Part shown: piece by piece, positions 1,596-18,004 of the stretch
Layout of the letters: each line of letters begins with the position of its first letter
Numbering within the stretch: position 1 is the stretch's first letter
Virus record (IMG/VR): IMGVR_UViG_2778261084_000006
Location: 1 to 25,050 of that record
Length of the DNA: 25,050 nucleotides
Direction: 5' to 3' (one strand)
Source: a virus
Lineage: Duplodnaviria > Heunggongvirae > Uroviricota > Caudoviricetes
Notes under the pieces: generated by a model
What the model was told of the DNA's origin: nothing
Databases searched by the model: none
The model's input: the letters and a program-made list of their open reading frames with translations, nothing else
Made by a program: the position numbers and the translations under genes

Positions 1596-1710
1596 CAGAA
1601 AACCCTCCGAGTGGTGTGTTTTTTTGCGACTACTAATCGCTTTTTTCGTGGTGGCTGAAATTTAGCCACCAATAGTAGGCACTTGTGATGAATATATTCA
1701 CGATGAATTG

Positions 1711-2010
1711 TTAACCAGTCTTTTGACCGGAGTGGGGCGACGTTGTTTCGTTTTGCCCAAAGTGTGCGAGAGCGGGCGCAATTTGCCCGGACTCAGGAGC
1801 GATCTGATTGGTCATGAACCATAAAGTGTATTTGGTGAATTGTGGGGTCTGCAGGATGTTCATCATGACATCTGTTGGAGGTGTTGAACGACCACTTTCA
1901 TAGTAACTCAGCGTGCCATACGGAACCCCTGTTAAATCAGCAAGTTGTTGTCTGCTCAAATACTCTGATTTTCGCATTAAGACTATCTTCTCGCTTATCG
2001 TGTTTGACAT
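1711..2010 (-). CDS. C: immunity repressor C (P2 C-like, 99 aa, HTH)
   Basis: MSNTISEKIVLMRKSEYLSRQQLADLTGVPYGTLSYYESG; HTH motif; divergent from cox; matches my recollection of P2 C. Confidence 0.9.
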   Translation of the reverse strand: MSNTISEKIVLMRKSEYLSRQQLADLTGVPYGTLSYYESGRSTPPTDVMMNILQTPQFTKYTLWFMTNQIAPESGQIAPALAHFGQNETTSPHSGQKTG

Positions 2011-2124
2011 GGTGTTTAGATCTCAATAGTATTTAGTTTAGATGTAGATTGTTTAGTGCTTGGATGTGGGCACTAAAAGGCATTATAAGACATTAAACGC
2101 AATTCATGAGGGCTAGAGGACGAC
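2011..2124. promoter_or_regulatory. C/cox intergenic switch region (face-to-face Pc/Pe promoters and repressor operators)
   Basis: 114-bp AT-rich interval between divergent C and cox with reiterated TTTAG-containing motifs (tttagatct, tttagtttagatgtagattgtttagtg); exact operator boundaries not resolved. Confidence 0.55.
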
Positions 2125-2400
2125 ATGAGCAAGCAAGTAACACTCATGACTGATGCGATTCCTTATCAGGAGTTCGCAAAACTAATAGGAAAATCGACAG
2201 GAGCGGTTCGTCGGATGATCGATAAAGGAAAGCTGCCTGTAATTGATATGACCGATCCACAATCAGCTTCAGGTCGTGCAGGTGAATATTGGGTATACCT
2301 TCCGGCATGGAATAACGGACTAAAACTGGCTTATGAAAGCCGCCCTAAAGAGATTCGTGACGGCTGGTTGATGTGGTTAGGTCTCGGTGAACCACGTTAA
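2125..2400 (+). CDS. cox: Cox (excisionase / repressor of Pc), 91 aa
   Basis: MSKQVTLMTDAIPYQEFAKLIGKSTGAVRRMIDKGKLPVIDMTDPQ; size and position identical to P2 cox. Confidence 0.9.
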   Translation: MSKQVTLMTDAIPYQEFAKLIGKSTGAVRRMIDKGKLPVIDMTDPQSASGRAGEYWVYLPAWNNGLKLAYESRPKEIRDGWLMWLGLGEPR

Positions 2401-2410
2401 GGAGAACCGT

Positions 2411-2581
2411 ATGAATGAGCCTCGTTGTATTGCTCAGTTACTGCGTAACGAAAGCCCCAGGGCGATTGACTTCACCATCACCCACGGTAAGGGGCGTAAG
2501 GGAATCATTATCCGCACCAAAAAACAGAGTCCGTTAAAAAAGGCTCTGACCTTTCTGAAAAGCCGGAGGGTATGGAAATGA
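2411..2581 (+). CDS. small early-operon protein (P2 orf78-like), hypothetical
   Basis: ATG at 2411 preceded by aaggag RBS; ORF-track entry 2387..2581 begins upstream at a non-ATG codon; stop overlaps B start. Confidence 0.5.
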   Translation: MNEPRCIAQLLRNESPRAIDFTITHGKGRKGIIIRTKKQSPLKKALTFLKSRRVWK

Positions 2582-3078
2582 CAGTGATGACGCTCAATCT
2601 CGTTGAAAAACAGCCAGCAGCTATGCGCCGGATAATTGGTAAGCATCTTGCCGTTCCTCGCTGGCAGGATACATGTGATTATTATAATCAGATGATGGAG
2701 CGCGAACGGCTAACAGTTTGCTTTCATGCGCAGTTAAAACAGCGTCACGCAACGATGCGTTTTGAAGAAATGAACGACGTCGAACGTGAACGACTGGTAT
2801 GTGCAATTGATGAATTGCGTGGGGCATTCTCAAAACGTCGTCAGGTCGGTGCAAGTGAGTATGCATATATTAGTTTTTTAACAGTCAGTCAGCGTCGTAC
2901 TTTATTTATGCATGCCGGATTGACTGAAAAAGAATTTAACCAGCCATACTGGCGAATTAATGAAGAGTCATGTTACTGGCGTGATGCTTTATTCCGTGCA
3001 TTACGTGAATTATTCAGCCTGTTTGAGTATGCACCGACAATTCTGACATCGGTAAAACCAGAGCAATATCTGCATTAA
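2578..3078 (+). CDS. B: replication protein B (P2 gpB-like, helicase-loader type)
   Basis: MTVMTLNLVEKQPAAMRRIIGKHLAVPRWQDTCDYYNQ...; start chosen at second ATG (2578) for RBS spacing after ggaggg; track ORF starts at 2572. Confidence 0.85.
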   Translation: MTVMTLNLVEKQPAAMRRIIGKHLAVPRWQDTCDYYNQMMERERLTVCFHAQLKQRHATMRFEEMNDVERERLVCAIDELRGAFSKRRQVGASEYAYISFLTVSQRRTLFMHAGLTEKEFNQPYWRINEESCYWRDALFRALRELFSLFEYAPTILTSVKPEQYLH

Positions 3079-3141
3079 GTAATTAACCAGAGTTTTTAAC
3101 GCACTTAATTGTGCGGGGCTTCTTTTTGCCTGGAGAAAGTC

Positions 3142-3366
3142 ATGCATACAGTTTCTGAAAATCAGTGCGGTAAATACGCATTACTGCTGCAACAGGCCAG
3201 AACCGAAGCACAGGCCGATGCAGCGACGCGCTTTTCTTCTCATCTTGACGCCATGATTCGCCACATCACAAAGGCGGAGTTATCCCGCGTGGAGATAGTC
3301 GAGCTGCTCAGTCAGGAGTCGGAAAAATTTCACAACATCGGATTGTCTCGCGGGGAGGTGCTTTGA
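3142..3366 (+). CDS. small early-operon hypothetical protein (P2 orf80-like position)
   Basis: ATG at 3142 with ggagaaag RBS; track ORF starts at TTG 3109; stop overlaps next start. Confidence 0.5.
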
Positions 3367-3668
3367 TGTCCTGTTCTCGTTCAGTTGTTTTACTGAACAA
3401 TGCCTTAAAAATCGCCGTTATGAAAAATGGCGATTTGTCTCTTATTCAACTTGGTCTTGATAAAGAAAAACGCGAAATAACTGAATCTGTTATCGCGATT
3501 TATCAGAGTGAATTAAACCTCCTGTCTGATGTGGTCAATTTACTTGTTAAACGCGCTGTATTTCACAAGCAAATTTCCTCCGTGGATGAACTGACGAAAT
3601 TAACGACAGAAATCGCCAGCTATTGCGCTGATGAATTTAAAAAAATGAACGACAAAAGGAACTGGTAA
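3366..3668 (+). CDS. small early-operon hypothetical protein (P2 orf81-like position)
   Basis: ATG 3366 overlapping upstream stop (TGATG), ggggagg RBS; ~100 aa. Confidence 0.5.
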   Translation: MSCSRSVVLLNNALKIAVMKNGDLSLIQLGLDKEKREITESVIAIYQSELNLLSDVVNLLVKRAVFHKQISSVDELTKLTTEIASYCADEFKKMNDKRNW

Positions 3669-3892
3669 TGCCGGACAACGTAGATTTTATTCAGGAACAA
3701 CAGGCTGAATTACTGGAGCGCCAGATTAACGCGGCAAGGGTAAAACATTGCGGTGCTTCTGCGCTGGTTTGCGAAGAGTGTGACGCGCCAATACCTGCTG
3801 CCCGTCGTGCGGCTTATCCGTCAGCCACGCGTTGTGTTTCCTGTCAGGCAGTCTTTGAAGCAAAAAACAAACATTACCGGAGAACGGCATGA
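3668..3892 (+). CDS. TraR/DksA-family C4 zinc-finger protein (P2 orf82-like)
   Basis: 74 aa; CGASALVCEECDAPIP...ATRCVSCQ gives CxxC-N17-CxxC; TAATG overlap with upstream gene. Confidence 0.75.
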   Translation: MPDNVDFIQEQQAELLERQINAARVKHCGASALVCEECDAPIPAARRAAYPSATRCVSCQAVFEAKNKHYRRTA

Positions 3893-4164
3893 GTATTCGT
3901 ATTGAAATTGGCGAACGTTATGTCGTTACCAGTGACAGCTTTCAGTTTATTCTCCACGAGAAAAAGAGAGCGGAAAGCGGTAAAAACGCCGGTCAGGAAT
4001 GGCTGGCGGTGGTTGGTTATTACCCGAAATTAAGCCAGCTCGTTTCCGGCCTGATGCATCACGATATTCTGACCGGAAGCGCAAAATCTTTTGCCGATTT
4101 AAACGTGCAGGTTGAGCAACTCAGCAGGCGTTGTTCAGAGGCTTTTGGCTCATATGGACGTTAA
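3889..4164 (+). CDS. small early-operon hypothetical protein (P2 orf83-like position)
   Basis: ATGA overlap with upstream stop; ggagaacgg RBS; 3' end overlaps the A start. Confidence 0.5.
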   Translation: MSIRIEIGERYVVTSDSFQFILHEKKRAESGKNAGQEWLAVVGYYPKLSQLVSGLMHHDILTGSAKSFADLNVQVEQLSRRCSEAFGSYGR

Positions 4165-6439
4165 AGCCTCCGGGCGTTTTGTCCCTCCGTCAGCATTTGC
4201 CGCAGGCACCGGTAAGACGTTTACCGGTGCTTATGCATGGAACGCGCCACGCGAGGCTGTCGGGCGCGAAAGACCCCTTACACGTGACGAGATGCGTCAG
4301 GTGCAAGGTGTTTTATCCACGATAAATCGCCTGCCTTATTTTTTGCGCTCGCTGTTTACTTCACGCTATGACTACATCCGGCGCAATAAAAGCCCGGTGC
4401 ACGGGTTTTATTTCCTCACATCCACTTTTCAGCGTCGTTTATGGCCGCGCATTGAGCGTGTGAATCAGCGCCATGAAATGAACACCGACGCGTCGTTGCT
4501 GTTTCTGGCAGAGCGTGACCATTATGCGCGCCTGCCGGGAATGAATGACAAGGAGCTGAAAAGGTTTGCCGCCCGTATCTCATCGCAGCTTTTCATGATG
4601 TATGAGGAACTCTGCGATGCCTGGGTGGATGCGCATGGCGAAAAAGAATCGCTGTTTACGGATGAGGCGCAGGCGTATCTGTATGGTCATGTTGCTGGCG
4701 CTGCACGTGCTTTCAATATTTCCCCGCTTTACTGGAAAAAATACCGTAAAGGACAGATGACCACGAGGCAGGCATATTCTGCCATTGCCCGTCTGTTTAA
4801 CGATGAGTGGTGGACTCATCAGCTTAAAGGCCAGCGTATGCGCTGGCATGAGGCGTTATTGATAGCTGTCGGGGAGGTCAATAAAGACCGTTCTCCTTAT
4901 GCCAGTAAACATGCCATTCGGGATGTGCGTGCGCGCCGTCAGGCAAATCTGGAGTTTCTTAAATCGTGTGACCTTGAAAACAGGGAAACCGGCGAACGCA
5001 TCGACCTTATCAGTAAGGTGATGGGCAGTATTTCTAATCCTGAAATTCGCCGGATGGAGCTGATGAACACCATTGCCGGTATTGAGCGTTACGCCGCCGC
5101 AGAGGGTGATGTGGGGATGTTTATCACGCTGACCGCGCCGTCAAAGTATCACCCGACACGTCAGGTCGGAAAAGGCGAAAGTAAAACCGTCCAGCTTAAT
5201 CACGGCTGGAATGATGAGGCATTTAATCCGAAGGATGCGCAGCGTTATCTCTGCCGTATCTGGAGCCTGATGCGCACGGCATTCAAGGATAATGATTTAC
5301 AGGTCTACGGTTTGCGAGTCGTCGAGCCACACCACGACGGAACGCCGCACTGGCATATGATGCTTTTTTGTAATCCACGCCAGCGTAACCAGATTATCGA
5401 AATCATGCGTCGCTACGCGCTCAAAGAGGATGGCGACGAAAGAGGAGCTGCGCGAAACCGTTTTCAGGCAAAACACCTTAACCGGGGCGGTGCTGCGGGA
5501 TATATCGCGAAATACATTTCAAAAAACATCGACGGCTATGCACTGGATGGTCAGCTCGATAACGATACCGGCAGGCCGCTGAAAGACACCGCCGCGGCTG
5601 TTACCGCATGGGCGTCAACGTGGCGCATCCCGCAATTTAAAACGGTTGGCCTGCCGACAATGGGGGCTTACCGTGAACTACGCAAATTGCCGCGCGGCGT
5701 CAGCATTGCTGATGAGTTTGACGAGCGCGTCGAGGCTGCACGCGCCGCCGCAGACAGTGGCGATTTTGCGTTGTATATCAGCGCGCAGGGTGGGGCAAAT
5801 GTCCCGCGCGATTGTCAGACTGTCAGAGTCGCCCGTAGCCCGTCGGATGACGTTAACGAGTACGAGGAAGAAGTCGAGAGAGTGGTCGGCATTTACGCGC
5901 CGCATCTCGGCGCGCGTCATATTCATATCACCAGAACGACGGACTGGCGCATTGTGCCGAAAGTTCCGGTCGTTGAGCCTTTGACTTTAAAAAGCGGCAT
6001 CGCCGCGCCTCGGAGTCCTGTCAATAACTGTGGAAAGCTCACCGGTGGTGATACTTCGTTACCGGCTCCCACACCTTCTGAGCACGCCGCAGCAGTGCTT
6101 AATCTGGTTGATGACGGTGTTATTGAATGGAATGAACCGGAGGTCGTGAGGGCGCTCAGGGGCGCATTAAAACACGACCTGCGAACGCCAAACCGTCAGC
6201 AAAGAAACGGAAGCCCGTTAAAACCACATGAAATTGCACCATCGGCCAGACTGACCCGGTCGGAAAGAATGCAAATTACCCGTATCCGCGTTGACCTTGC
6301 TCAGAACGGTATCAGGCCACAGCGATGGGAGCTTGAGGCGCTGGCGCGGGGAGCGACCATAAATTATGGCGGGAAAAAATTCACGTATCCGGTCACTGAT
6401 GAGTGGCCGGGATTCTCAACAGTAATGGAGTGGACATAA
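4154..6439 (+). CDS. A: rolling-circle replication initiator gpA (HUH endonuclease), 761 aa
   Basis: HUH-type motif HHDGTPHWHMMLF and tandem-tyrosine motif AGYIAKYISKNIDGY; first ATG at 4154 (MDVKASG...) gives 761 aa; track ORF starts at TTG 4112. Confidence 0.9.
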   Translation: MDVKASGRFVPPSAFAAGTGKTFTGAYAWNAPREAVGRERPLTRDEMRQVQGVLSTINRLPYFLRSLFTSRYDYIRRNKSPVHGFYFLTSTFQRRLWPRIERVNQRHEMNTDASLLFLAERDHYARLPGMNDKELKRFAARISSQLFMMYEELCDAWVDAHGEKESLFTDEAQAYLYGHVAGAARAFNISPLYWKKYRKGQMTTRQAYSAIARLFNDEWWTHQLKGQRMRWHEALLIAVGEVNKDRSPYASKHAIRDVRARRQANLEFLKSCDLENRETGERIDLISKVMGSISNPEIRRMELMNTIAGIERYAAAEGDVGMFITLTAPSKYHPTRQVGKGESKTVQLNHGWNDEAFNPKDAQRYLCRIWSLMRTAFKDNDLQVYGLRVVEPHHDGTPHWHMMLFCNPRQRNQIIEIMRRYALKEDGDERGAARNRFQAKHLNRGGAAGYIAKYISKNIDGYALDGQLDNDTGRPLKDTAAAVTAWASTWRIPQFKTVGLPTMGAYRELRKLPRGVSIADEFDERVEAARAAADSGDFALYISAQGGANVPRDCQTVRVARSPSDDVNEYEEEVERVVGIYAPHLGARHIHITRTTDWRIVPKVPVVEPLTLKSGIAAPRSPVNNCGKLTGGDTSLPAPTPSEHAAAVLNLVDDGVIEWNEPEVVRALRGALKHDLRTPNRQQRNGSPLKPHEIAPSARLTRSERMQITRIRVDLAQNGIRPQRWELEALARGATINYGGKKFTYPVTDEWPGFSTVMEWT

Positions 6440-6592: not shown

Positions 6593-8431
6593 ATGAGCGA
6601 GTTTGATGTTTTTTCTATTTCAGTTGATGATTTTAAAAAAAGTGAATACGCCAGTATATTATCATCGCCAAGAAGTTATTCTCATTTTGATATGGAGTCT
6701 TATTTTGTTCAGTTGTTGTCATCTTACAAGCTAAAAAACGATGTAAGTTCTTGGCGGCTTTGCTATTTATTACGTGCGTTGTTTAATTTTAAATTTTCTA
6801 GGTCTGGTGATATTATCGGTTTTGAGCCAAAAATCATTCTCTATCCTGAGAGGGGCTATAGGCCTTCAGATTATAAGGAGAGTTTTTCAACAATATTAAC
6901 TTGTATTAAAGAAAACTCCGATAATCCTTATATTATATCTAGGGTGTGTGATGTTTTATGGATAAATAACCGTAAGGATATAGACTCTGCCAATAAAGCA
7001 ATAGAGTCATATTCTCTAATGGTTAATGATGCTTGCGATACTTTAATAGAAAAACAAGAGTCAGGTGATATCCATATTTTTGATGTTGTTGACTGCTTGG
7101 ATAGAGGTATCGCAATATCGCGCATGCTTATTGGCAGGAAAAAACAACTACAAGGGGGGATAGTTGATTCGACATTAAGGTTATATCATGTATTAATAGA
7201 CTCTGGTATATTCACCGGTGTATTAAGAGTTTCTGAAATTCTTTATAAGAATAATTTATTGTGTCCCTTGCAATTGGCTGAGAATGCAGAAAAGATAGCT
7301 GATGAGCATTGTGGAGCGTCTTATTTTGATGCAGTGAAAAAATTGTTTTATTTTGCGTCTGAATTATATGTTAAAAACGATATGGAAGAGCAAGGAAGAC
7401 GGTGCAGAATTAAAGCGTCAGAAATAACATTGGCTCAATTTGAACAGTCTTCATCTTCAATATTGAAGGCTCATTGGTTAAGAGTTGCTCTTGGCGAATT
7501 TAGAGCAATTGGTGGAATGAATGAAGAAATTAAAAAGATTAGAGAGGAATTGAATTCTATTCGAGATCAAATTAATGATGAAATGCACTTCTTTGCAATA
7601 CCAATGGATCTTAGTGATGTTATCGCTCAGAAAGAGCATGTTTATAATCAATTGGATTTCTCAAGGGTAATTAAAACTTTAATTGCTAGATTTAAGATTG
7701 TAAGTGCCAGTGAAATTATGGAAAGAGCTCGTTCCGATGCTAAAAAACATTTTTTTCTTAATATGAGTGAAACGGTTGTTTATGATGATAGAGGGCGCGT
7801 TGTAGCAAGTCGTTCACCTTTGGATCCTGCGGGGGATATAAGTTTAAATGATGCTTGTGCAAATTATTTAAGAACTAGTAACATTGAGCATCAGGTCTAT
7901 GTTTGTGGTGAGTTTGAAGTCGTTAGGCAAAGTGTGTTGGCTAGGTATTCATTAAATGAAAATACATTTGACCCAATCTCACAACAAAGTGCATTTGTTC
8001 CACCTGGGTATGCAGAAATATTTTCTTTGGGGTTTTATAAGCTTTGGCAGGGAGATTATGTGTCTGCCTGTTATTTGTTATTGCCGCAATTGGAGAATTC
8101 AATTAGATGGATTTTAGAATTAAGAAGAAAAGAAACAACGAAAATAGATGTGTCGCTTTTTGAGGAGGCTACTAGCCTATCTCAAATGCTTGCAAATTAT
8201 AGGAGTGAAATGGAAGGTGTTTTTGATAGTGATCATGTATTGACTATGGATTTATTGTTCAATATGAAAGGTGGTGCTGCAATTAGACACACGATGGCTC
8301 ATGGCAGGTATACTGTAAATCATTGTTATCAACCAACTTCAGTTTTTGCCTGTGTCTTTATCTTTTATTTAACTTGTTTGCCTTTATTTAGTGTATGGGA
8401 AGATAAAGTTGAACCTTATCTGGCTGATTAA
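6593..8431 (+). CDS. cargo protein of unknown function, 612 aa, in the A-to-cos variable locus; possible HEPN-like motif and C-terminal hydrophobic anchor
   Basis: long ORF in visibly AT-rich DNA with aaggtgagg RBS; no Walker A motif (so not an Old-type ATPase); GGAAIRHTMAHG (Rx4H) near C-terminus followed by hydrophobic SVFACVFIFYLTCLPLFSVW. Confidence 0.7.
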   Translation: MSEFDVFSISVDDFKKSEYASILSSPRSYSHFDMESYFVQLLSSYKLKNDVSSWRLCYLLRALFNFKFSRSGDIIGFEPKIILYPERGYRPSDYKESFSTILTCIKENSDNPYIISRVCDVLWINNRKDIDSANKAIESYSLMVNDACDTLIEKQESGDIHIFDVVDCLDRGIAISRMLIGRKKQLQGGIVDSTLRLYHVLIDSGIFTGVLRVSEILYKNNLLCPLQLAENAEKIADEHCGASYFDAVKKLFYFASELYVKNDMEEQGRRCRIKASEITLAQFEQSSSSILKAHWLRVALGEFRAIGGMNEEIKKIREELNSIRDQINDEMHFFAIPMDLSDVIAQKEHVYNQLDFSRVIKTLIARFKIVSASEIMERARSDAKKHFFLNMSETVVYDDRGRVVASRSPLDPAGDISLNDACANYLRTSNIEHQVYVCGEFEVVRQSVLARYSLNENTFDPISQQSAFVPPGYAEIFSLGFYKLWQGDYVSACYLLLPQLENSIRWILELRRKETTKIDVSLFEEATSLSQMLANYRSEMEGVFDSDHVLTMDLLFNMKGGAAIRHTMAHGRYTVNHCYQPTSVFACVFIFYLTCLPLFSVWEDKVEPYLAD

Positions 8432-8744: not shown

Positions 8745-9014
8745 GTGACTAAATTTGACAAAAAAAAAGCAATTTCTATTTTAACAGAAAAAAAAGCCTT
8801 GCTCCCATGTCATCGGTGTGGAAATTCAAAGTTCATCATTTTGGATGGCATATCATCACTTCCATTAATGGAAAATATGGAAATGATTGGTAGTATTGTT
8901 GTTGGCGGAATGAATGCTCCTGTATTACATGTGGCATGTGAGAATTGTGGTGCAGTTACTTCACATTTGCTTGGGGCACTTGGTTTAATGCCGGAGATTA
9001 AATCAAATGACTAA
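8745..9014 (+). CDS. small zinc-ribbon protein (CxxC...CxxC), hypothetical cargo
   Basis: 89 aa from GTG start with ggagtg RBS; CHRCGN ... CENCGA cysteine pairs; last 8 nt overlap the next ORF. Confidence 0.6.
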   Translation: MTKFDKKKAISILTEKKALLPCHRCGNSKFIILDGISSLPLMENMEMIGSIVVGGMNAPVLHVACENCGAVTSHLLGALGLMPEIKSND

Positions 9015-9477
9015 GGATGTTTTTTTCTCTGATGAAGGTAGTGGTAAAAAAAGTGCTGTCTTGCATGGGGCGCAGGTTACAATAAACCCTGATTCGCAAT
9101 TTACAAAAAAGATAATTAGGCAGACTGAGGTTGATGTTATTGTGATAAGTGATGATAAACTTCATATAATTTTGACGAATTGCTTATCTAAAATTGCATC
9201 ATTAAACCGCTGGTCAACACCTTTGGGTATTTTAATTACCTTGGCGGTAACTATGTTAACCACAAATTTTAAGAATTTTATTCTTCAGGATTCTGTGTGG
9301 GAGGCTGTTTTCTGGATGCTTATTTTTTTTAATATTATCTGGTTGGTGAAAAACATTCCATATAGACACTTATTTTTAACTGTTTGTCATTCTATAGGGG
9401 TTCGTAAAGATAAAAAAAGAATTAGTGATGTATACCACATTATAGATATAATTAAACAAGGTGATACACGCTTTTGA
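9007..9477 (+). CDS. small membrane protein with two predicted TM helices, hypothetical cargo
   Basis: 156 aa; hydrophobic segments WSTPLGILITLAVTMLTTNF and WEAVFWMLIFFNIIWLV; start overlaps upstream stop (translational coupling); AT-rich. Confidence 0.6.
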   Translation: MTKDVFFSDEGSGKKSAVLHGAQVTINPDSQFTKKIIRQTEVDVIVISDDKLHIILTNCLSKIASLNRWSTPLGILITLAVTMLTTNFKNFILQDSVWEAVFWMLIFFNIIWLVKNIPYRHLFLTVCHSIGVRKDKKRISDVYHIIDIIKQGDTRF

Positions 9478-9553: not shown

Positions 9554-10573
9554 TCATAATGTGTATTTGTTGAATCTAATTATTTCTTCGCCAACCCATT
9601 CATTAAGGGCAATAAAGCGAGATTGAATAGGAGTAAGCTCATTGCGGACAAAGACCTTTGCCACTTTCTCAATATCACCCAGTGACCCGACGTTCTCCGG
9701 CTTGCCGCCCATCAACTGAAAGGGGATGCGGTGCGCGTCCAGCAGGTCAGCGGCGCTGGCTTTTTTGATATTAAAAAAATCGTCCTTCGTCGCCACTTCA
9801 CTGAGGGGGATAATTTTAATGCCGTCGGCTTTCCCCTGTGGGGCATAGAGAAACAGGTTTTTAAAGTTGTTGCGGCCTTTCGACTTGACCATGTTTTCGC
9901 GAAGCATTTCGATATCGTTGCGATCCTGCACGGCATCAGTGACGTACATGATGTATCCGGCATGAGCGCCGTTTTCGTAATACTTGCGGCGGAACAGCGT
10001 GGCCGACTCATTCAGCCAGGCAGAGTTAAGGGCGCTGAGATATTCCGGCAGGCCGTACAGCTCCTGATTAATATCGGGCTCCAGCAGGTGAAACACGGAG
10101 CCGGGCGCGAAGGCTGTCGGCTCGTTGAAGGACGGCACCCACCAGTAAACATCCTCTTCCACGCCACGACGGGTATATTTTGCCGGTGAGGTTTCCAGTC
10201 TGATGACCTTACCGGTGGTGCTGTAACGCTTTTCCAGAAACGCATTACCGAACACCAGAAAATCCAGCACAAAGCGGCTGAAATCCTGCTGGGAAAGCCA
10301 CGGATGCGGAATAAACGTTGAAGCCAGAATATTGCGTTTAACGTAAATCGGCGAGCTGTGATGCACGGCAGCACGCAGGCTTTTTGCCAGACCGGTAAAG
10401 CTGACCGGTGGCTCATACCATCTGCCGTTACTGATGCACTCGACGTAATCCAGAATGTCACGGCGGTCGAGAACCGGCACCGGCTCGCCAAAGGTGAATG
10501 CCTCCATTTTCGGGGCGCTGGCGGTCATTTTTTTTGCCGCTGGTCGCGGTGTTTTCCCTTTTTTCTTGCTCAT
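9554..10573 (-). CDS. Q: portal protein gpQ (P2-like)
   Basis: 339 aa, MSKKKGKTPRPAAKK...; Q start overlaps P stop (ATGA) as in P2. Confidence 0.9.
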   Translation of the reverse strand: MSKKKGKTPRPAAKKMTASAPKMEAFTFGEPVPVLDRRDILDYVECISNGRWYEPPVSFTGLAKSLRAAVHHSSPIYVKRNILASTFIPHPWLSQQDFSRFVLDFLVFGNAFLEKRYSTTGKVIRLETSPAKYTRRGVEEDVYWWVPSFNEPTAFAPGSVFHLLEPDINQELYGLPEYLSALNSAWLNESATLFRRKYYENGAHAGYIMYVTDAVQDRNDIEMLRENMVKSKGRNNFKNLFLYAPQGKADGIKIIPLSEVATKDDFFNIKKASAADLLDAHRIPFQLMGGKPENVGSLGDIEKVAKVFVRNELTPIQSRFIALNEWVGEEIIRFNKYTL

Positions 10574-11250
10574 CAGTAAAACTCCAGAATGGTGGATGTC
10601 AGCGGAGTGCTGATACCCGCGGTGAGTGGCTCATTTAACAGGGCGTGCATGGTCGCCCAGGCGAGGTCGGCGTGGCTGGCTTCCTCGCTGCGGCTGGCCT
10701 CATAGGTGGCGCTGCGTCCGCTGCTGGTCATGGTCTTGCGGATAGCCATAAACGAGCTGGTGATGTCGGTGGCGCTGACGTCATATTCCAGACAGCCACG
10801 GCGGATGACGTCTTTTGCCTTGAGCACCATTGCGGTTTTCATTTCCGGCGTGTAGCGGATATCGCGCGCGGCGGGATAGAACGAGCGCACGAGCTGGAAC
10901 ACGCCGACACCGAGGCCGGTGGCATCAATACCGATGTATTCAACGTTATATTTTTCGGTGAGTTTGCGGATGGATTCCGCCTGGGTGGCAAAGTCCATGC
11001 CTTTCCACTGGTGACGCTCAAGTATTCTGAATTTGCCACCGGCCACCACCGGCGGTGCCAGTACCACGCATCCGGCGCTGTCGCCACGGTGTGACGGGTC
11101 GTAACCAATCCATACCGGACGTGAGCCGAACGGATTGGCGGCAAACGGCGCATAGTCTTCCCATTCTTCCAGCGTGTCGACCATGCAGCGTTGCAGCTCC
11201 TCGACCCGAATTTTGCTACCACCATGACTAATGCGCTTGCGGGTAAGCAA
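10573..11250 (-). pseudogene. P: terminase large subunit gpP, 5'-truncated (C-terminal ~225-237 codons only)
   Basis: C-terminal nuclease-domain-like sequence (WIGYDPSHRGDSAGCVVLAPP...YIGIDATGLGVGVF); frame closed by an in-frame stop at 11287-11289; full P2 gpP is ~590 aa; upstream DNA is tail-fibre coding on the other strand. Confidence 0.8.
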
Positions 11251-12318
11251 CCGAAAGATGCCACTTTGACGGCGCTGGCGGGGCTTGCTACTGCGGCAGA
11301 CAGGTTTCCGTATTTTACGGGGAATGATGTTGCCAGCCTGGCGACCCTGACAAAAGTCGGGCGGGATATTCTGGCTAAATCGACCGTTGCCGCCGTTATC
11401 GAATATCTCGGTTTACAGGAAACGGTAAACCGAGCCGGGAACGCCGTGCAAAAAAATGGCGATACCTTGTCCGGTGGACTTACTTTTGAAAACGACTCAA
11501 TCCTTGCCTGGATTCGAAATACTGACTGGGCGAAGATTGGATTTAAAAATGATGCCGATGGTGACACTGATTCATACATGTGGTTTGAAACGGGGGATAA
11601 CGGCAATGAATATTTCAAATGGAGAAGTCGCCAGAGCACCACAACAAAAGACCTGATGAATCTTAAATGGGATGCTCTGTATGTTCTTGTTAAAGCCCTT
11701 TTCAGCAGTGAAGTAAAAATATCTACAGTCAATGCGCTGAGGATATTTAATTCATCTTTTGGTGCTATTTTTCGCCGTTCTGAAGAAAACCTGTATATCA
11801 TTCCTACACGAGAAAATGAGGGTGAAAATGGAGATATTGGGCCATTAAGGCCATTCGGCATCAACTTAAGAACAGGAGTTGTGTCTGTTGGTAATGGTGC
11901 CAGGATTGATGGCGGGCTGGCACTTGGCACGAATAACGCGTTGGGTGGGAACTCTATTGTTCTTGGTGATAACGACACCGGATTTAAACAAAATGGCGAT
12001 GGTAATCTGGATGTTTATGCTAATAACGTCCATGTTATGCGCTTTGTTTCCGGAAGCATTCAAAGTAATAAGACCATAAATATTACGGGGCGTGTTAATC
12101 CCTCGGATTACGGTAACTTTGATTCCCGCTATGTGAGAGATATCAGACTTGGCACACGTGTTGTCCAGACCATGCAGAAAGGGGTGATGTATGAGAAAGC
12201 AGGGCACGTAATTACCGGGCTTGGTATTGTCGGTGAAGTCGATGGTGATGACCCCGCAGTATTCAGGCCAATACAAAAATACATCAATGGCACATGGTAT
12301 AACGTCGCACAGGTGTAA
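11191..12318 (+). pseudogene. H: tail fibre gpH-like, 5'-truncated (C-terminal ~365 aa)
   Basis: conserved tail-fibre block NALAGKQPKDATLTALAGLATAADRFPYFTGNDVASLATL begins at ~11230; ORF opens at TTG 11191 inside P-derived DNA; followed by tail fibre assembly gene. Confidence 0.75.
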
Positions 12319-12321
12319 TTT

Positions 12322-12849
12322 ATGCAGCATTTAAAAAATATTACTGCGGGTAATCCAAAAACTGTTGCCCAATATCAACTGACAAAAAATTTTGATGTTA
12401 TCTGGTTATGGTCCGAAGAGGGAAAAAACTGGTATGAGGAAGTAAGTAATTTTCAGGAAGACACGATAAAGATTGTTTACGACGAGAATAATATAATTGT
12501 CGGCATCACCAGAGATGCTTCAACGCTTAACCCTGAAGGTTTCAGCGTTGTCGAGGTTCCTGATATTACCTCCAACCGACGTGCTGATGACTCAGGTAAA
12601 TGGATGTTTAAGGATGGTGCCGTGATTAAGCGGATTTATACGGCAGATGAACAGGAGCAACAGGCAGAATCACAAAAGGCAGCTTTACTTTCCGAAGCTG
12701 AATCCGTGATTTTGCCGCTGGAACGCGCTGTCAGGCTGAATATGGCGACGGATGAGGAACGCAGCCGACTGGAAGCATGGGAACGCTACAGCGTTCTGGT
12801 CAGTCGTGTGGATCCTGCAAATCCCGAATGGCCGGAAATGCCGCAATAA
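12322..12849 (+). CDS. G: tail fibre assembly chaperone gpG
   Basis: 175 aa, [41 protein letters not shown] ... [12 protein letters not shown]; matches my recollection of P2 gpG. Confidence 0.9.
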
Positions 12850-13117
12850 GTTGTATGATCTCTGGTGTGAGCTTACATATCTATAGCACAGAGTAAAGCC
12901 TAATCTGACAGTCCGCTATGTGCCAAAAGCGGAAGTTGCTTCGTGCTGGGATAGGATGATTATGGAAATGTGTTCATGAGCATTTCATGACGCATGAATT
13001 GAATTATAATTCAATTAGATATACTATATTTATAATTAAAAATAGCATTGTAATATTTAAAAGATATATGTTATTGATACGCATATTTATTCTTTTAAAT
13101 TCACAAGTGAGGTTTGT

Positions 13118-14140
13118 ATGCGTAGAGTAGTAATTGACACAAATATTTTATATGCTCTGACTGGAGTTTCTGTGAATGAAAAGGTGGTAACTTCGAGTCT
13201 TAATGATTTTAAGCTATCCATAACCACCCCATCAATTATAGAGATGGTTGTTAAATTTCAATATGATTTAGATACAATAAAGAAATGCCTCGAACCTATC
13301 ATAAATGAAAGCATTGAGCTCATTAGCATAGGTCACGCCCCAATTCCGAATGAATATCTTTACATGTTACACTTCGCGAAGGAAATAGAAGAAGTTACAG
13401 ATCTCATTGATGAGATTAAAACGTTAAAAATCTCCAGGGAAGCTGAATTCTACAGGTTTATACTTATATTAGTTGTTTCTGGGTTATTTGAGGTTATTAG
13501 AGAGGATGGCTACAAATTTTGTGATGAGGCACGAAATCAAAAACAATTAATGATGGTGCGTTCTTTATTTGAGTCTAACATGGATCTAATATTAGATTAC
13601 TTTAAAGATGAAATACGTAATGGATATATGAATGGAAATGAACAACAAGCTGCCCTAGATGCTTTCCAAAGTAAAATAATCATGTTATTAAATATTTTTC
13701 ATATAAATTATCATATGATTAAAACCGATACATTTCCTTATAATGAATCCTCGGTGAACCTTGAGAACTTAATCACTAGTTTAGATAGTGATTGCTTTAA
13801 CATAAAACTTAAAAAATACATCGATAATCCTTTATTTTTTGCATCTAAAGCAAAATACAATTCGATAATAAATAATTATATGGCAGAAATGAGAAATGGA
13901 ATGCTAGATTTGAGTGGACTCACTGAGAAGTCTATGGATTTCCTATTGAATAAGATTGACAGTGCTTATAAAAATGGCAGGAAGTTGCGAAAAAATGACA
14001 TATTTGATTTCCTGATTGTTATTTCCTTAAACATGCCAGACACTTTGATTGTTACACTTGATAAAGGTTTCCTGAAAGATCTTGAACATCTTGATTATAA
14101 TAGCTACCAACTTTGTCAAAAGTTAGGCTATATAAATTGA
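13118..14140 (+). CDS. PIN-like domain protein (putative nuclease), 340 aa, cargo in G-to-FI variable locus
   Basis: N-terminus MRRVVIDTNILYAL (PIN first strand with Asp), downstream PSIIEMVVKF (second acidic), C-terminal LIVTLDKGF (PIN TxD..F-like); AT-rich; agtgagg RBS. Confidence 0.6.
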   Translation: MRRVVIDTNILYALTGVSVNEKVVTSSLNDFKLSITTPSIIEMVVKFQYDLDTIKKCLEPIINESIELISIGHAPIPNEYLYMLHFAKEIEEVTDLIDEIKTLKISREAEFYRFILILVVSGLFEVIREDGYKFCDEARNQKQLMMVRSLFESNMDLILDYFKDEIRNGYMNGNEQQAALDAFQSKIIMLLNIFHINYHMIKTDTFPYNESSVNLENLITSLDSDCFNIKLKKYIDNPLFFASKAKYNSIINNYMAEMRNGMLDLSGLTEKSMDFLLNKIDSAYKNGRKLRKNDIFDFLIVISLNMPDTLIVTLDKGFLKDLEHLDYNSYQLCQKLGYIN

Positions 14141-14348
14141 AACTTTCAGTGAATGTAATGAAACCATTACACCAACTTTTAGATGACTCTGGATAAGACA
14201 ACAGTAAGAATAATTGCAGAGGTCCTCTTTTCGCTCATAGCAGCCCTCGCGGCGCTTCAGACGGTCTGCTTCGTGCTGGAGCGGACCTAAGTGCCTAGCT
14301 ATGAGTGGCACGACAGAATACAATGTAAAATAAAATACCCTTGCAGGG

Positions 14349-15407
14349 ATGAAAATAATGATTGAACCGTTTAGTTGGGAAAATTGGAAGCAAGTATACC
14401 TACATAAAAAAAACAAGAAGCGAGTTTCTCTTGAACGATACGGATTGAGAAGTCTTCACTCTGTCGCCAGCTTGGACTTAATCGTATCAAAAGTTCATGA
14501 ATTATATTTAAAAAAACAGCAAGAAGTGGCTGTTAATGCTAAATCTGTTTGGATAGATGGAACTCCTCAGGCTAAATTCAAGAGTGTCGATGGCTCTGTC
14601 TTAAACTGCGAATTGGCGGATCTTCTGTTTATTATTCACGAGATGGATAATAAAAACAAAACAATAAATTTTCGAGCTACCTTATTACAAGGTAAGTGTT
14701 CTGAGAAACATAATTTACTCCCAAATGGACCTTCGACAGATAAAGAAAGAAAACTGCTCGAATCTATCGATCGCAATGAGTATTTGTACTTATACCCAGG
14801 CACGAGGGCATACGGAGAAAAAATAGGGAAATATAAATTAGGCGGGGAGAACATCGGATTAGCGGACTGTGCGAAATATTTAATTATGCCTAAATATGAA
14901 AGATGGAAATATAAAACACCTGATAATATATCTCCTTACGTAATTGGCTGGCCAAACAAAATATCATCCAATTATTTAACCAATGTTGTAAATTACATGG
15001 ATGTAATTCTTGAAAAAATGATTTCATCAAAGACCATGGGAAAGGAAATAAATTTAACGATGCAAAACCATATAGACAGGCAATGTGAGTGGTCAAAAAT
15101 GATTTATGATTTGTTAAATAGCTACTTACCGATAACAATGAAGGGCTATGACTCCCAACGAAGAGTATATAAGTCAAGTTTATTTGACGATAATATGTCT
15201 GCTACATTAGCATTGATTAATAATGGTCACTGTGATTTCATAAGTAAACATGCTTTTAAAGACTTGCCTAAAGGTAAGGGTAGGTTTTTATATCAACATA
15301 CATTAAATATTCTTGGGGATTACTCTAGCCCCGTTATTTCAACAATATATATCCAAATCAAACAAAAGGAAGGGGAAATATATCGTCAATCTCTTGGGGT
15401 TGATTGA
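14349..15407 (+). CDS. hypothetical protein, 352 aa, cargo
   Basis: long AT-rich ORF on same strand as the PIN-like gene; no motif recognised; alternative start at 14358. Confidence 0.6.
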   Translation: MKIMIEPFSWENWKQVYLHKKNKKRVSLERYGLRSLHSVASLDLIVSKVHELYLKKQQEVAVNAKSVWIDGTPQAKFKSVDGSVLNCELADLLFIIHEMDNKNKTINFRATLLQGKCSEKHNLLPNGPSTDKERKLLESIDRNEYLYLYPGTRAYGEKIGKYKLGGENIGLADCAKYLIMPKYERWKYKTPDNISPYVIGWPNKISSNYLTNVVNYMDVILEKMISSKTMGKEINLTMQNHIDRQCEWSKMIYDLLNSYLPITMKGYDSQRRVYKSSLFDDNMSATLALINNGHCDFISKHAFKDLPKGKGRFLYQHTLNILGDYSSPVISTIYIQIKQKEGEIYRQSLGVD

Positions 15408-15655
15408 GTTAGGAGTAACTGTTTGCTAAAGACTATATTTCCACTCTTGACGAGAATAATAAGATGCTCGGTTTTATTAGCAGAGTTATTTTAAAATTCA
15501 ATTCAGAAAGATATGATTGTGTTTAGGCTTAGGTCCACTCCTCGCTCATAGCAGACCTGATAATGTTCTGTCGATCAGTGGGTTCAAGAAAAGGACTATT
15601 AATCATCAACTATTAGTTGACCATTATCGTCATCGAAAATATTAGGTAAAAAATT

Positions 15656-15694
15656 GAGCCACAGACAAAAATATATTGAATTAACCTGTGGCTC
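15656..15694 (-). terminator. hairpin downstream of the GNAT gene (stem gagccacag / ctgtggctc, 21-nt loop)
   Basis: perfect 9-bp stem; on the minus strand it is followed by a T-run (complement of aaaaaatt); long loop lowers confidence. Confidence 0.4.
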
Positions 15695-15701
15695 TTTAAC
15701 A

Positions 15702-16352
15702 TTAGAGGTACATGCTCATCGGTATGCCTTGCCCTGCCTCAAGAGCAGCTTTACCTATCCATGTATCATGAACAACAAATCCATATTTTTCAAAATGCTT
15801 CTTGAGTGGTATGTCCGCAGCGGTAAGATATATTTCCTCAATGCCTTCTTGCTTACAATACTGTATGGCGTTTTCCAGAAGTTCGGCGAAAAGCCCAAGG
15901 CCATGATATTCTTGGAAGTCATATTTTTGAGGGATTACTGGTTCGTAGGGATTTACAAGCATTACATCAACGATCATTAAAATATTAGGGTAGGAATGTG
16001 CTAATATGAGCTCTACCGTCTCTTTATCATCCAGTTCTGGATCCTGAACCTCTCCATGTACATATAAAATATCTTTAATAACATTTTCATTTATATGTTT
16101 TGACACTTTTTTATATAGTAGCGGGTTATTAGTTTGGCATTCCCTTCCAAATATAAACTTATCTTGGTTAGGATTTGCATTGCAGAAACGGTCCCACGCT
16201 GCAATACCTATCTGAAAAAGATCATTTGGTTTATTTCTTACAAGGAATTCTATTCGCTCAATTCCATATTCTATGAATTTTACTGGATTAGTAAATTTTT
16301 TTGTTATTGATTCAGAAGGAAGTATAGCGTTTAATCTTCTCTGGTTTTCCAT
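15702..16352 (-). CDS. GNAT-family N-acetyltransferase, 216 aa, cargo
   Basis: acetyl-CoA-binding motif A region EYHGLGLFAELLENAIQYCKQEGIEEIYLTAAD and C-terminal KKHFEKYGF typical of GNAT fold; ATG with aggtg RBS; convergent with the 352-aa ORF. Confidence 0.7.
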   Translation of the reverse strand: MENQRRLNAILPSESITKKFTNPVKFIEYGIERIEFLVRNKPNDLFQIGIAAWDRFCNANPNQDKFIFGRECQTNNPLLYKKVSKHINENVIKDILYVHGEVQDPELDDKETVELILAHSYPNILMIVDVMLVNPYEPVIPQKYDFQEYHGLGLFAELLENAIQYCKQEGIEEIYLTAADIPLKKHFEKYGFVVHDTWIGKAALEAGQGIPMSMYL

Positions 16353-16693
16353 AATTCACACCTTGTAATTACCTCATGAAAATAATCTATATGTTGCACC
16401 AAGAAAGATAACATTGCCATAATTTATTAACTGGCCTATGACGCACATCAAGAATGGTCGTATCGGAATAAGGAGTAGCGGAAGATTATACCAGCAGATT
16501 TGCTACAAATATTAATAGTAGTTCTGGTGATGCTATGGGCTAGCATCACGAAAATGATGAATCATGTGTTATGCGGACACGATACTTGATCATAACGACA
16601 GCTTCTCGCTCAAAGCAGACTGTCAGATTTGATAGCGTTTTGGCTATGTAAATTGTCAGTCGGGAAATAAGTGAGTACAAATCATGACAGGCG

Positions 16694-16720
16694 GGCGGAT
16701 TGTCCGCCTTTTCTTTATCT
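16694..16720 (+). terminator. intrinsic-terminator-like hairpin plus T-tract upstream of FI
   Basis: ggcgga-ttg-tccgcc followed by ttttctttatctgttgtttc. Confidence 0.4.
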
Positions 16721-16813
16721 GTTGTTTCATCCACTGACCAGCCAGGTCAAATAGCGTCTCATGCTCTGCACAACAGAAAATACCACTCACCCATTAACCA
16801 CGGAGTTAGACGG

Positions 16814-18004
16814 ATGAGTGACTATCATCACGGCGTGCAGGTGCTGGAGATTAACGACGGCACCCGCGTCATTTCCACCGTATCCACTGCCATTGTCGGC
16901 ATGGTCTGCACGGCCAGCGATGCAGATGCGGAAACCTTCCCCCTCAATAAACCGGTGCTGATTACCAATGTGCAGAGCGCAATTGCAAAGGCCGGTAAAA
17001 AAGGCACGCTGGCGGCGTCGTTACAGGCCATCGCTGACCAGTCAAAACCGGTCACCGTTGTTGTGCGCGTGGAAGACGGCACCGGCGACGACGAAGAAAC
17101 GAAACTTGCGCAGACCGTTTCCAATATCATCGGCACCACCGACGAAAACGGTCAGTACACCGGACTGAAAGCCCTGCTGGCGGCGGAGTCGGTAACCGGT
17201 GTTAAACCGCGTATTCTCGGCGTGCCGGGACTGGATACCAAAGAGGTGGCTGTTGCACTGGCATCAGTCTGTCAGAAGCTGCGCGCTTTCGGGTATATCA
17301 GCGCATGGGGCTGTAAAACCATTTCTGAGGTGAAAGCCTACCGCCAGAATTTCAGCCAGCGTGAGCTGATGGTCATCTGGCCGGATTTCCTCGCATGGGA
17401 TACGGTCACCAGTACCACCGCCACCGCGTATGCCACTGCCCGTGCGCTGGGGCTGCGCGCTAAAATCGACCAGGAGCAGGGCTGGCATAAAACGCTGTCC
17501 AACGTTGGGGTGAACGGTGTTACCGGCATCAGTGCATCTGTATTCTGGGATTTGCAGGAGTCCGGCACCGATGCTGACCTGCTTAACGAGTCAGGCGTCA
17601 CTACGCTGATTCGCCGCGACGGTTTCCGCTTCTGGGGTAACCGTACCTGCTCTGATGACCCGCTGTTCCTCTTTGAAAACTACACCCGCACCGCGCAGGT
17701 GCTGGCCGACACGATGGCTGAGGCGCACATGTGGGCGGTGGACAAGCCCATCACCGCAACGCTGATTCGCGACATCGTTGACGGTATCAATGCCAAATTC
17801 CGTGAGCTGAAAACAAACGGCTATATCGTGGATGCGACCTGCTGGTTCAGCGAAGAATCCAACGATGCGGAAACCCTCAAGGCCGGAAAACTGTATATCG
17901 ACTACGACTATACACCGGTGCCTCCTCTCGAAAACCTGACCCTGCGCCAGCGTATTACCGATAAATACCTGGCAAATCTGGTCACCTCGGTTAACAGCAA
18001 TTAA
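16814..18004 (+). CDS. FI: tail sheath protein gpFI
   Basis: MSDYHHGVQVLEINDGTRVISTVSTAIVGMVCTASDADAETFPLNKPVLITNVQ ...; 396 aa from ATG 16814 (track ORF starts upstream at 16700). Confidence 0.95.
   Translation: MSDYHHGVQVLEINDGTRVISTVSTAIVGMVCTASDADAETFPLNKPVLITNVQSAIAKAGKKGTLAASLQAIADQSKPVTVVVRVEDGTGDDEETKLAQTVSNIIGTTDENGQYTGLKALLAAESVTGVKPRILGVPGLDTKEVAVALASVCQKLRAFGYISAWGCKTISEVKAYRQNFSQRELMVIWPDFLAWDTVTSTTATAYATARALGLRAKIDQEQGWHKTLSNVGVNGVTGISASVFWDLQESGTDADLLNESGVTTLIRRDGFRFWGNRTCSDDPLFLFENYTRTAQVLADTMAEAHMWAVDKPITATLIRDIVDGINAKFRELKTNGYIVDATCWFSEESNDAETLKAGKLYIDYDYTPVPPLENLTLRQRITDKYLANLVTSVNSN

Follow-up and report, generated by a model that had tools for sequence, protein, structure and literature searches.

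Do two neighbouring AT-rich genes among the tail genes of a P2-type prophage make up one anti-phage system, or are they separate acquisitions that happen to share a site? The question is raised by a 25,050-nucleotide (nt) stretch of viral DNA (IMG/VR record IMGVR_UViG_2778261084_000006, positions 1 to 25,050; hereafter the window), which carries a P2-type prophage with an AT-rich insert at the Z/fun position. A reading made from the sequence alone had proposed that two plus-strand open reading frames (ORFs) of this insert, here ORF1 and ORF2, are a candidate for an undescribed defence or abortive-infection pair. Our analysis agreed with that reading on the coordinates of the two genes, on their place between the tail-fibre assembly gene G and the sheath gene FI, and on their base composition, the GC content being 0.29-0.38 over about 13000-16400 against 0.50-0.59 in the adjoining tail genes. 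It also brought in a third AT-rich cargo gene, ORF3, which had not been part of the earlier proposal. We consider it likely that the insert is an array of three independently acquired cassettes, in which ORF1 is a protein of the anti-phage family DS-3, ORF2 a separate probable nuclease and ORF3 a GNAT protein.

The cargo and its boundary sites

The array reading is favoured because the breakpoints of homology to the window fall on repeated boundary sites. These sites are 24 nt long, have palindromic arms (GTCCGCT...AGCGGAC) and come in two types: a right-type site found 3' of the cargo (GTCCGCTCnTCGCTCAnAGCrGAC, with a TCGCTCA centre) and a left-type site found 5' of it, which is inverted and has a TGGCACA centre (Table 1). 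In one variant of the Escherichia coli P2 prophage (L013), three other genes stand in place of ORF1, whereas ORF2 and ORF3 are retained and the prophage is otherwise identical; its homology to the window ends at 12932 and resumes at 14227. A Raoultella chromosomal island (L008), in turn, shares only 14266-16620 with the window. All of these end points lie at boundary sites, and the 208-nt gap between ORF1 and ORF2 contains a cassette junction. The 16-nt core of the site occurs three times in the window, where 0.12 occurrences would be expected by chance, and P2-like phages with other cargo keep the same right boundary. Since the arms of the sites vary without compensating changes, it is the sequence and not a hairpin that is conserved. 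A structured RNA or a terminator at the junction was also considered and dropped, because Rfam gave no match in 12700-16900 and the ORF1-ORF2 gap folds no better than shuffled sequence (z = -0.75).

The same sites delimit single cassettes elsewhere, in prophages of P2-like, lambdoid and other types and in a Raoultella island. In E. coli, in Enterobacter and in viral contigs, a pair of them encloses a 1.73-kb unit with a DS-3-type gene, with the left-type site upstream of DS-3 in loci L056, L054 and L002; boundary sites are also present in L002, L008, L055 and L057. Further pairs enclose an AAA_15/21 operon in Raoultella and, in a different E. coli prophage, a relative of ORF2. Where a P2 carries Lit cargo, both cargo genes are followed by a right-type site, and a left-type-like site lies at the left boundary. 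The exact right-type pattern was found in 76 IMG/VR contigs (L059-L133), compared with an estimated ~0.02 by chance. The cargo beside it is very diverse and rich in defence domains: the ORFs just upstream encode 122 proteins in 80 clusters, with Pfam matches to HEPN_LA2681, GmrSD_N, RelA_SpoT, S_4TM, DarT, Pycsar-type TIR, KAP_NTPase, FRG and DNA-hypermodification enzymes. In the Enterobacter locus L002, sites at 937-960 (-) and 5041-5064 (+) bracket a gene for a 1,275-amino-acid (aa) SIR2_2-domain protein (1085-4912), a few kb from the cassette of the DS-3 homologue; the latter is flanked by two Peptidase_S74 tail-fibre genes and has an invertase-type HTH_7 gene nearby.

Cargo at this position is exchanged among otherwise near-identical P2 prophages, and a variable Z-region of P2 was reportedly the subject of Nilsson et al. 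in 2004. None of the 5,426 complete RefSeq E. coli genomes carries the cargo of the window, whereas the same flanks surround other cargo in 579 of them. The exact ORF2 protein is present in at least 24 contigs, and the six that were inspected belong to NCBI draft assemblies. The cargo is unrelated in sequence to fun(Z), and P2 and its relatives match the flanks only. That the P2 tail genes include a defence hotspot has been noted before (10.1101/2024.10.15.618418), and a hotspot described more recently is probably the same locus as P2 Z/fun (10.64898/2026.02.27.708500).

Table 1. Positions of the genes and sites discussed, in window coordinates unless another locus is named.
Feature	Coordinates	Strand	Description
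ORF1	13118-14140	+	340 aa; predicted split-PIN nuclease, DS-3 family; intact ORF
ORF2	14349-15407	+	352 aa, or 349 aa from the methionine at 14358; intact ORF
ORF3	15702-16352	-	216 aa; GNAT-fold acetyltransferase by sequence; convergent with ORF2; intact ORF
Left-type site	12911-12934	-	TTCCGCTTTTGGCACATAGCGGAC on the minus strand; just after G; inside the outer inverted repeat
ORF1/ORF2 cassette junction	14222-14288		right-type site 14222-14245 (+), ~18-nt spacer, degenerate inverted left-type site ~14265-14288 (-)
Right-type site between ORF2 and ORF3	15533-15556	+	GTCCACTCCTCGCTCATAGCAGAC
Right-type site, right boundary of cargo	16597-16620	+	inside inverted repeat 16594-16629, upstream of FI
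Outer inverted repeat	12902-12937		36 nt; paired with 16594-16629
DS-3 locus L056, sites	5802-5825; 7509-7532	-; +	
G	12322-12849		tail-fibre assembly gene
FI	16814-18004		sheath gene
Small ORF at the ORF1 start	12987-13130	+	47 aa
gpP remnant	10573-11250	-	225 aa; Terminase_6C
Truncated H	11191-12318	+	tail-fibre gene; Gp34_trimer part only
DUF7380 gene	6593-8431	+	612 aa
ORF beside the DUF7380 gene	9007-9477	+	156 aa

The prophage itself is defective. Its terminase gpP is reduced to the C-terminal nuclease domain, and this remnant abuts a truncated tail-fibre gene H; the capsid, lysis and baseplate genes that lie between P and H are therefore missing. Two draft genomes (L009 and L010) have the same cargo in prophages that keep the tail, baseplate and full-length tail-fibre genes. 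In the second P2 hotspot, between gpA and the portal gene gpQ, where P2 has old/tin, the window carries a gene for a DUF7380 protein with a match (E 2e-68) to PDC-S39, a candidate system in PADLOC; the small ORF beside it gave no match.

ORF1 and the DS-3 family

DS-3 (working name PIN8; WP_022645725.1, 340 aa) has been described as a single-protein split-PIN anti-phage system (10.1101/2025.01.08.631726; Science 2026, PMC13092281). It comes from the DefensePredictor study, where it was validated experimentally and shown to defend as a single protein; it was strongly protective against T-even phages, with -log efficiency of plating values in the screen of 3.5 for T4, 5.6 for RB69 and 4.7 for Candy, and its catalytic mutants, listed in Table S11 as D7A and E42A, lost defence (PMC13092281). 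According to the same study, HHpred matched PIN domains to residues 1-75 (probability 0.91) and 276-327 (0.41), and the legend of Figure S10 describes a PIN domain divided between both termini by a large insert (PMC13092281). BLASTP aligned ORF1 with DS-3 over the full length and with no gaps, at 212 of 340 identical residues (62%), 81% similarity and E 7e-162. Because of this full-length homology we take ORF1 to be a diverged member of a described and validated system. D7 and E42, the residues on which DS-3 defence depends, are present in ORF1 and invariant in its family, which is small (25 proteins, nearly all of about 340 aa) and includes the DS-3 clade (P0008, P0010).

The proposal of a defence function made in the sequence-only reading thus holds for ORF1, for which such a role is very likely by homology, but the word undescribed does not: by its similarity ORF1 is a diverged allele of a family already published as DS-3, and its DNA has been in GenBank since 2004. 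Positions 12850-16700 of the window are 99.9% identical to record AJ512681 ('Bacteriophage P2-EC48 proviral Z-region, ORF1, ORF2 and ORF3'), in which all three genes carry the annotation 'putative lysogenic conversion protein'. AJ512681 (our locus L001, at about 357-360) lacks one A of the A-run at window positions 13176-13180, and the resulting frameshift led to the annotation of ORF1 from an internal methionine (299 aa, CAD54903). The deposited protein therefore lacks the N-terminal PIN part from D7 to that methionine, which the intact ORF1 of the window retains.

As the earlier reading also suggested, ORF1 is supported as a divergent nuclease of PIN-like type that is interrupted by a long insert, both by its conserved motifs and by its predicted structure. 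In an alignment of 19 sequences, D7, T8, N9, T36, T37, E42, G72 and H73 are invariant, as are E108, E110, K292, N293, D294, D297, T313, L314 and D315. The acidic motifs are D7 in VVIDTNIL, E42 in IIEMVV, D294/D297 in KNDIFD and D315 in TLDKGF; the three signatures that had been picked out from the sequence (VVIDTNIL, IIEMVV and TLDKGF) therefore supply the first, second and fourth acidic PIN positions, and KNDIFD, which had been missed, supplies the third. These residues follow the canonical PIN order at the expected places in the secondary structure, namely after strand 1, at the start of the helix after strand 2, and after strands 3 and 4. The AlphaFold model is confident (predicted local distance difference test, pLDDT, 87.3; predicted template-modelling score, pTM, 0.83) and consists of a PIN N-half (~1-75), an all-helical insert (~76-290, about 215 aa) and a PIN C-half (~291-340). 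Its core is a Rossmann-like alpha/beta/alpha fold with a parallel sheet, as in PIN domain-like proteins, and superposes on VapC PIN structures over 112-126 residues at 2.7-3.0 Å.

Profile libraries did not reveal this relationship. ORF1 had no Pfam or NCBIfam PIN match at E up to 1, and a profile built from its family alignment gave only chance-level matches to PDB sequences. In line with the earlier remark that the pair could not be matched to any named system from sequence, ORF1 and ORF2 had no match in PADLOC, Pfam, NCBIfam or PHROGs; for PADLOC-DB v2.0.0, a release from 2023 that is older than DS-3, this applies to all three ORFs at E up to 1.

By homology to DS-3, ORF1 most likely acts alone. 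Its homologues stand alone in a lambdoid prophage, in the tail-fibre locus of an Enterobacter prophage and in a Pseudoalteromonas island, and no neighbour is shared among them over about five distinct genomic contexts. Of the 5,426 complete E. coli genomes, 72 contain DS-3 itself; its DNA is about 70% identical to that of ORF1 and lies in a lambdoid prophage between DUF977 and hokD. What has been shown for ORF1 is its fold, its homology to DS-3, the conservation of its catalytic residues and its occurrence as a solo gene; on this ground a working model may be proposed for activation, substrate and the role of the insert. ORF1 would stay inactive in the lysogen and would be switched on by infection; the active enzyme would then cleave RNA through the acidic site formed by D7, E42, D297 and D315 and thereby block phage production, with the helical insert as a likely sensor or autoinhibitory lid. 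For ORF1 the main gain is a correct label, together with the extension of the DS-3 family to a second prophage type. Moreover, an allele at 62% identity could help to map the determinants of phage specificity and to find out what the helical insert senses.

ORF2, ORF3 and the question of partners

ORF2 belongs to a family that is genuinely unannotated. Our first search returned 56 homologues, many of them named 'lysogenic conversion protein', a label inherited from the 2004 record. The N-termini of these homologues and the 2004 GenBank annotation also favour the methionine at 14358 as the start, which gives a protein of 349 aa. When 1.8 billion cluster representatives were searched with a profile, 232 clusters came out at E<=1e-3, of which 72 were at E<=1e-30, so that the family comprises at least 232 clusters at 50% identity, from Gamma- and Betaproteobacteria. 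In an alignment of 69 members that reaches down to ~20% identity, E29, E88, D91 and K116 are invariant and D70, P73 and Q114 nearly so (Q114 at least 90% conserved). None of these 69 divergent relatives matched a model in Pfam, PADLOC or PHROGs, apart from one marginal PADLOC hit (E 0.008), and two family profiles gave chance-level matches only when compared with PDB sequences. The search of both models by structure, which the earlier reading had suggested, was informative for ORF1, whose nearest structures are VapC PIN domains; Foldseek of the ORF2 model against the PDB gave no meaningful match.

The model of ORF2 is nevertheless confident through residue 260 (pLDDT 84.2, pTM 0.86) and places the conserved residues E29, E88, D91 and Q114-x-K116 on one helix and one beta-hairpin: D91 opens the strand 92-99, Q114-x-K116 lies in the partner strand 105-118, and the helix 128-139 follows. 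We compared this arrangement with PD-(D/E)xK nucleases, namely Hjc, RecU resolvases and restriction enzymes of the Cfr10I/NgoMIV type. Relative to the PD-(D/E)xK signature ORF2 has Q in place of the second acid, and spatial clustering of the residues is read from the hairpin register only. The weak fold matches include a homing endonuclease and Holliday-junction resolvases; an hhalign comparison of the family with a Sulfolobus Hjc sequence did not align the motifs and was counted neither way. Because of the invariant residues and this weak fold signal, metal-dependent cleavage of nucleic acid is suggested for ORF2, and we give it roughly even odds of being a PD-(D/E)xK-type nuclease. It would be a cytoplasmic enzyme separate from ORF1 that uses E29, E88, D91 and Q114-x-K116, and most likely it would add a second, independent anti-phage or exclusion function. 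Single-protein PD-(D/E)xK defence proteins were among those validated in the DefensePredictor study (PMC13092281).

The genomic contexts of the ORF2 family, in each of which it is a solo gene, fit an accessory or defence role. Its members adjoin an HD protein and an AAA_15/21 operon in Raoultella and umuDC and GmrSD in Pantoea, come after a Cap4 nuclease and AAA_23 in Comamonas, and occupy prophage ends beside an integrase in Proteus and with an acyltransferase and a GIY-YIG protein in E. coli; AbiJ, cytosine methylases and PADLOC candidate systems appear in the pooled neighbourhoods. A search for a conserved partner gene beside the distant homologues found none. In several Pseudomonas loci (L037, L039, L041, L048, L049 and L053), distant homologues of 394-446 aa at 29-36% identity face, in convergent orientation, the genes for the tail tube (174 aa) and the sheath (about 474 aa) of Mu-like prophages, and the family therefore stands beside sheath and tube genes in two unrelated myovirus lineages.

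It is possible, if somewhat unlikely, that ORF2 is not a defence protein at all and serves lysogenic conversion, DNA repair or recombination, counter-defence, or the spread of a selfish or homing nuclease. Its sole public name, 'lysogenic conversion protein', and its weak fold matches would speak for this; as said, no defence model recognised the family. In the parts of the DefensePredictor supplements that we searched, neither the sequences of ORF2 and ORF3 nor the term 'lysogenic conversion protein' occurred, and literature searches returned nothing for the GenBank and UniProt identifiers or for the protein name combined with 'defense'. However, the family occupies defence-rich slots, from P2 Z/fun to the neighbourhoods listed above, and cassettes with the same boundary site in other phages hold many defence domains. 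Moreover, with no visible signal peptide or membrane segment, ORF2 is cytoplasmic by sequence, unlike classical conversion genes that modify the cell surface. We keep to the reading of ORF2 as a separate probable nuclease. It is small and conserved, its model is confident, four invariant residues are of catalytic type and it recurs in prophage defence slots, all of which makes it a cheap and well-defined candidate for screening by plaque assay.

ORF3 is a GNAT-fold acetyltransferase, as judged from profile matches. Residues 148-198 fall just below the Pfam thresholds for Acetyltransf_10 (21.6 against a cut-off of 23.6 bits) and Acetyltransf_1 (20.3 against 20.7), PHROGs gives an acetyltransferase match at E 2.7e-5, and the family profile matches Naa50 at E 8e-5 as well as other GNAT structures; NCBI names the protein a GNAT family N-acetyltransferase. 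The acetyl-CoA-binding core is present (motif A region, strand 4 - helix 3 - strand 5), G151 and G153 are invariant in the family alignment, and the N-terminal half is family-specific. A relationship to the GNAT-containing protein of DS-33 was considered and rejected (E 1.4). In Serratia (L023, 6001-6654 and 6723-7571; L024) an ORF3 homologue is convergent with a gene for a 282-aa protein that has a weak match to Mrr_cat, a PD-(D/E)xK domain; this mirrors the arrangement of ORF3 and ORF2, and the two nuclease-like proteins are unrelated in sequence.

Such an arrangement could indicate that ORF2 and ORF3 work as a pair, in which the GNAT protein controls the nuclease-like protein or protects the host, as in toxin-antitoxin or modification systems, with ORF1 standing apart. 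E. coli, Raoultella, Klebsiella, Citrobacter and Enterobacter all have the two genes side by side, and their 2.35-kb block has moved as a unit to a non-P2 island, at 88% DNA identity; the Serratia locus, with its different nuclease, points the same way. We still find a functional pair quite unlikely: at the 33 loci whose ORF2 homologue has <=59% identity no homologue of ORF3 lies nearby, Providencia (83%) and Serratia (52%) have an ORF3 homologue in the absence of any ORF2 homologue, a right-type boundary site separates the genes, and the two are convergent rather than co-transcribed.

A two-gene defence or abortive-infection system made of ORF1 and ORF2, for instance a sensor and its effector, is very improbable. 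The genes are adjacent, lie on the same strand, are alike in AT-richness and are both contained in at least 20 draft assemblies of E. coli, yet every one of these co-occurrences is the same nearly identical P2 cargo. The co-occurrence check that the earlier reading had called for, made by tblastn of the three proteins against all loci collected, went against the pair: ORF2 and ORF3 homologues were absent from all nine loci that hold diverged ORF1 homologues (in an Enterobacter prophage, in Pseudoalteromonas, on two viral contigs and in a lambdoid prophage of E. coli; about five distinct contexts), and no ORF1 homologue was found in any of the 34 loci with diverged ORF2 homologues, of which a single one, an 84%-identical Raoultella copy, has ORF3. 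In L013 ORF1 is exchanged on its own, and Raoultella, Klebsiella, Citrobacter and Enterobacter carry the ORF2-ORF3 block without it. Furthermore, the gap with its cassette junction separates the two genes, and DS-3 defends as a single protein. More improbable still is that ORF1 is the toxin of a VapBC-type module with an overlooked antitoxin gene: the PIN fold, the closeness to VapC structures and a 47-aa ORF overlapping the ORF1 start would speak for it, but this ORF is AT-rich, of low complexity and not conserved upstream of ORF1 homologues, homology of the Enterobacter cassette to the window starts only at 13099, the DS-3 cassette has no coding sequence upstream of DS-3, ORF1 has 340 aa against about 130 aa for VapC, and the authors of DS-3 report no cognate antitoxin (PMC13092281).

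Some observations weigh against an array of three independent, working cassettes. The prophage is defective, and its cargo may therefore be in decay, even if each of the three ORFs is intact. Promoter-like sites were not enriched in a consensus scan (20 found against 17.9 expected from shuffled sequence), and expression in the lysogen is thus putative. At 62% identity, the phage specificity of ORF1, or even its activity, may differ from that of DS-3. Finally, ORF2 and ORF3 are always found together in the clade above 83% identity, which spans five genera, and the two may therefore be linked in function.

A more far-reaching proposal joins two claims, that ORF2 founds an undescribed single-gene, nuclease-type anti-phage family and that the 24-nt sites are integron-like recombination sites which move single defence cassettes, DS-3 included, between unrelated prophages and islands. 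We put this forward as tentative and rather doubt that both parts will hold. The sites could be substrates of a recombinase or simply anchors for homologous recombination. A recent study of P2/P4 hotspots says of the recombination processes by which defences are swapped that they 'still need to be elucidated' (10.64898/2026.02.27.708500). The boundary sites offer a concrete sequence with which such swapping could be tested and, as a side observation, may be what matters most here.

Comparison with known systems

ORF1 is closest to DS-3, with which it shares the length of 340 aa, the split-PIN layout and the residues D7 and E42. Both are solo genes in an accessory slot of a prophage, between the same left-type and right-type sites. 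They differ in that slot, which is P2 Z/fun for ORF1 and a lambdoid prophage for DS-3, and in that the ORF1 cassette lacks a conserved 3' segment of ~585 nt. In genes of the DS-3 clade this segment precedes the right-type site (L056, 6927-7508; L054, L025 and L026; L002, 9024-9615), whereas in the window only 81 nt lie between ORF1 and its right-type site. In the Enterobacter locus L002 an intact protein of 95 aa with two hydrophobic stretches is encoded there (9133-9420, -), and the corresponding ORF is fragmented in the E. coli DS-3 loci.

By structure, the closest relatives of ORF1 are the VapC toxins, namely VapC21 of Mycobacterium tuberculosis (5sv2), a Caulobacter VapC (5k8j) and the Shigella VapC (6sd6), whose acidic residues follow the same canonical order. 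Unlike these, ORF1 has a helical bundle of ~215 aa between the third strand and the helix with the third acid, has no antitoxin partner and escapes the Pfam PIN models.

The cassette arrangement recalls that of integron cassettes with their attC sites and of the pdif modules of Acinetobacter. No integrase or Xer-type gene is present at the window locus, and to our knowledge the boundary sites have no recognisable sequence similarity to attC or dif. What they have in common is one short, imperfectly palindromic site per cassette, the organisation in arrays, the recurrence of the same cassette in unrelated genomic backgrounds and a very diverse cargo. The P2 Z/fun locus itself provides the nearest counterpart of the whole insert: in both, the cargo lies between G and FI within the same outer inverted repeats, but the window holds three cassettes where the fun(Z) locus holds one gene.

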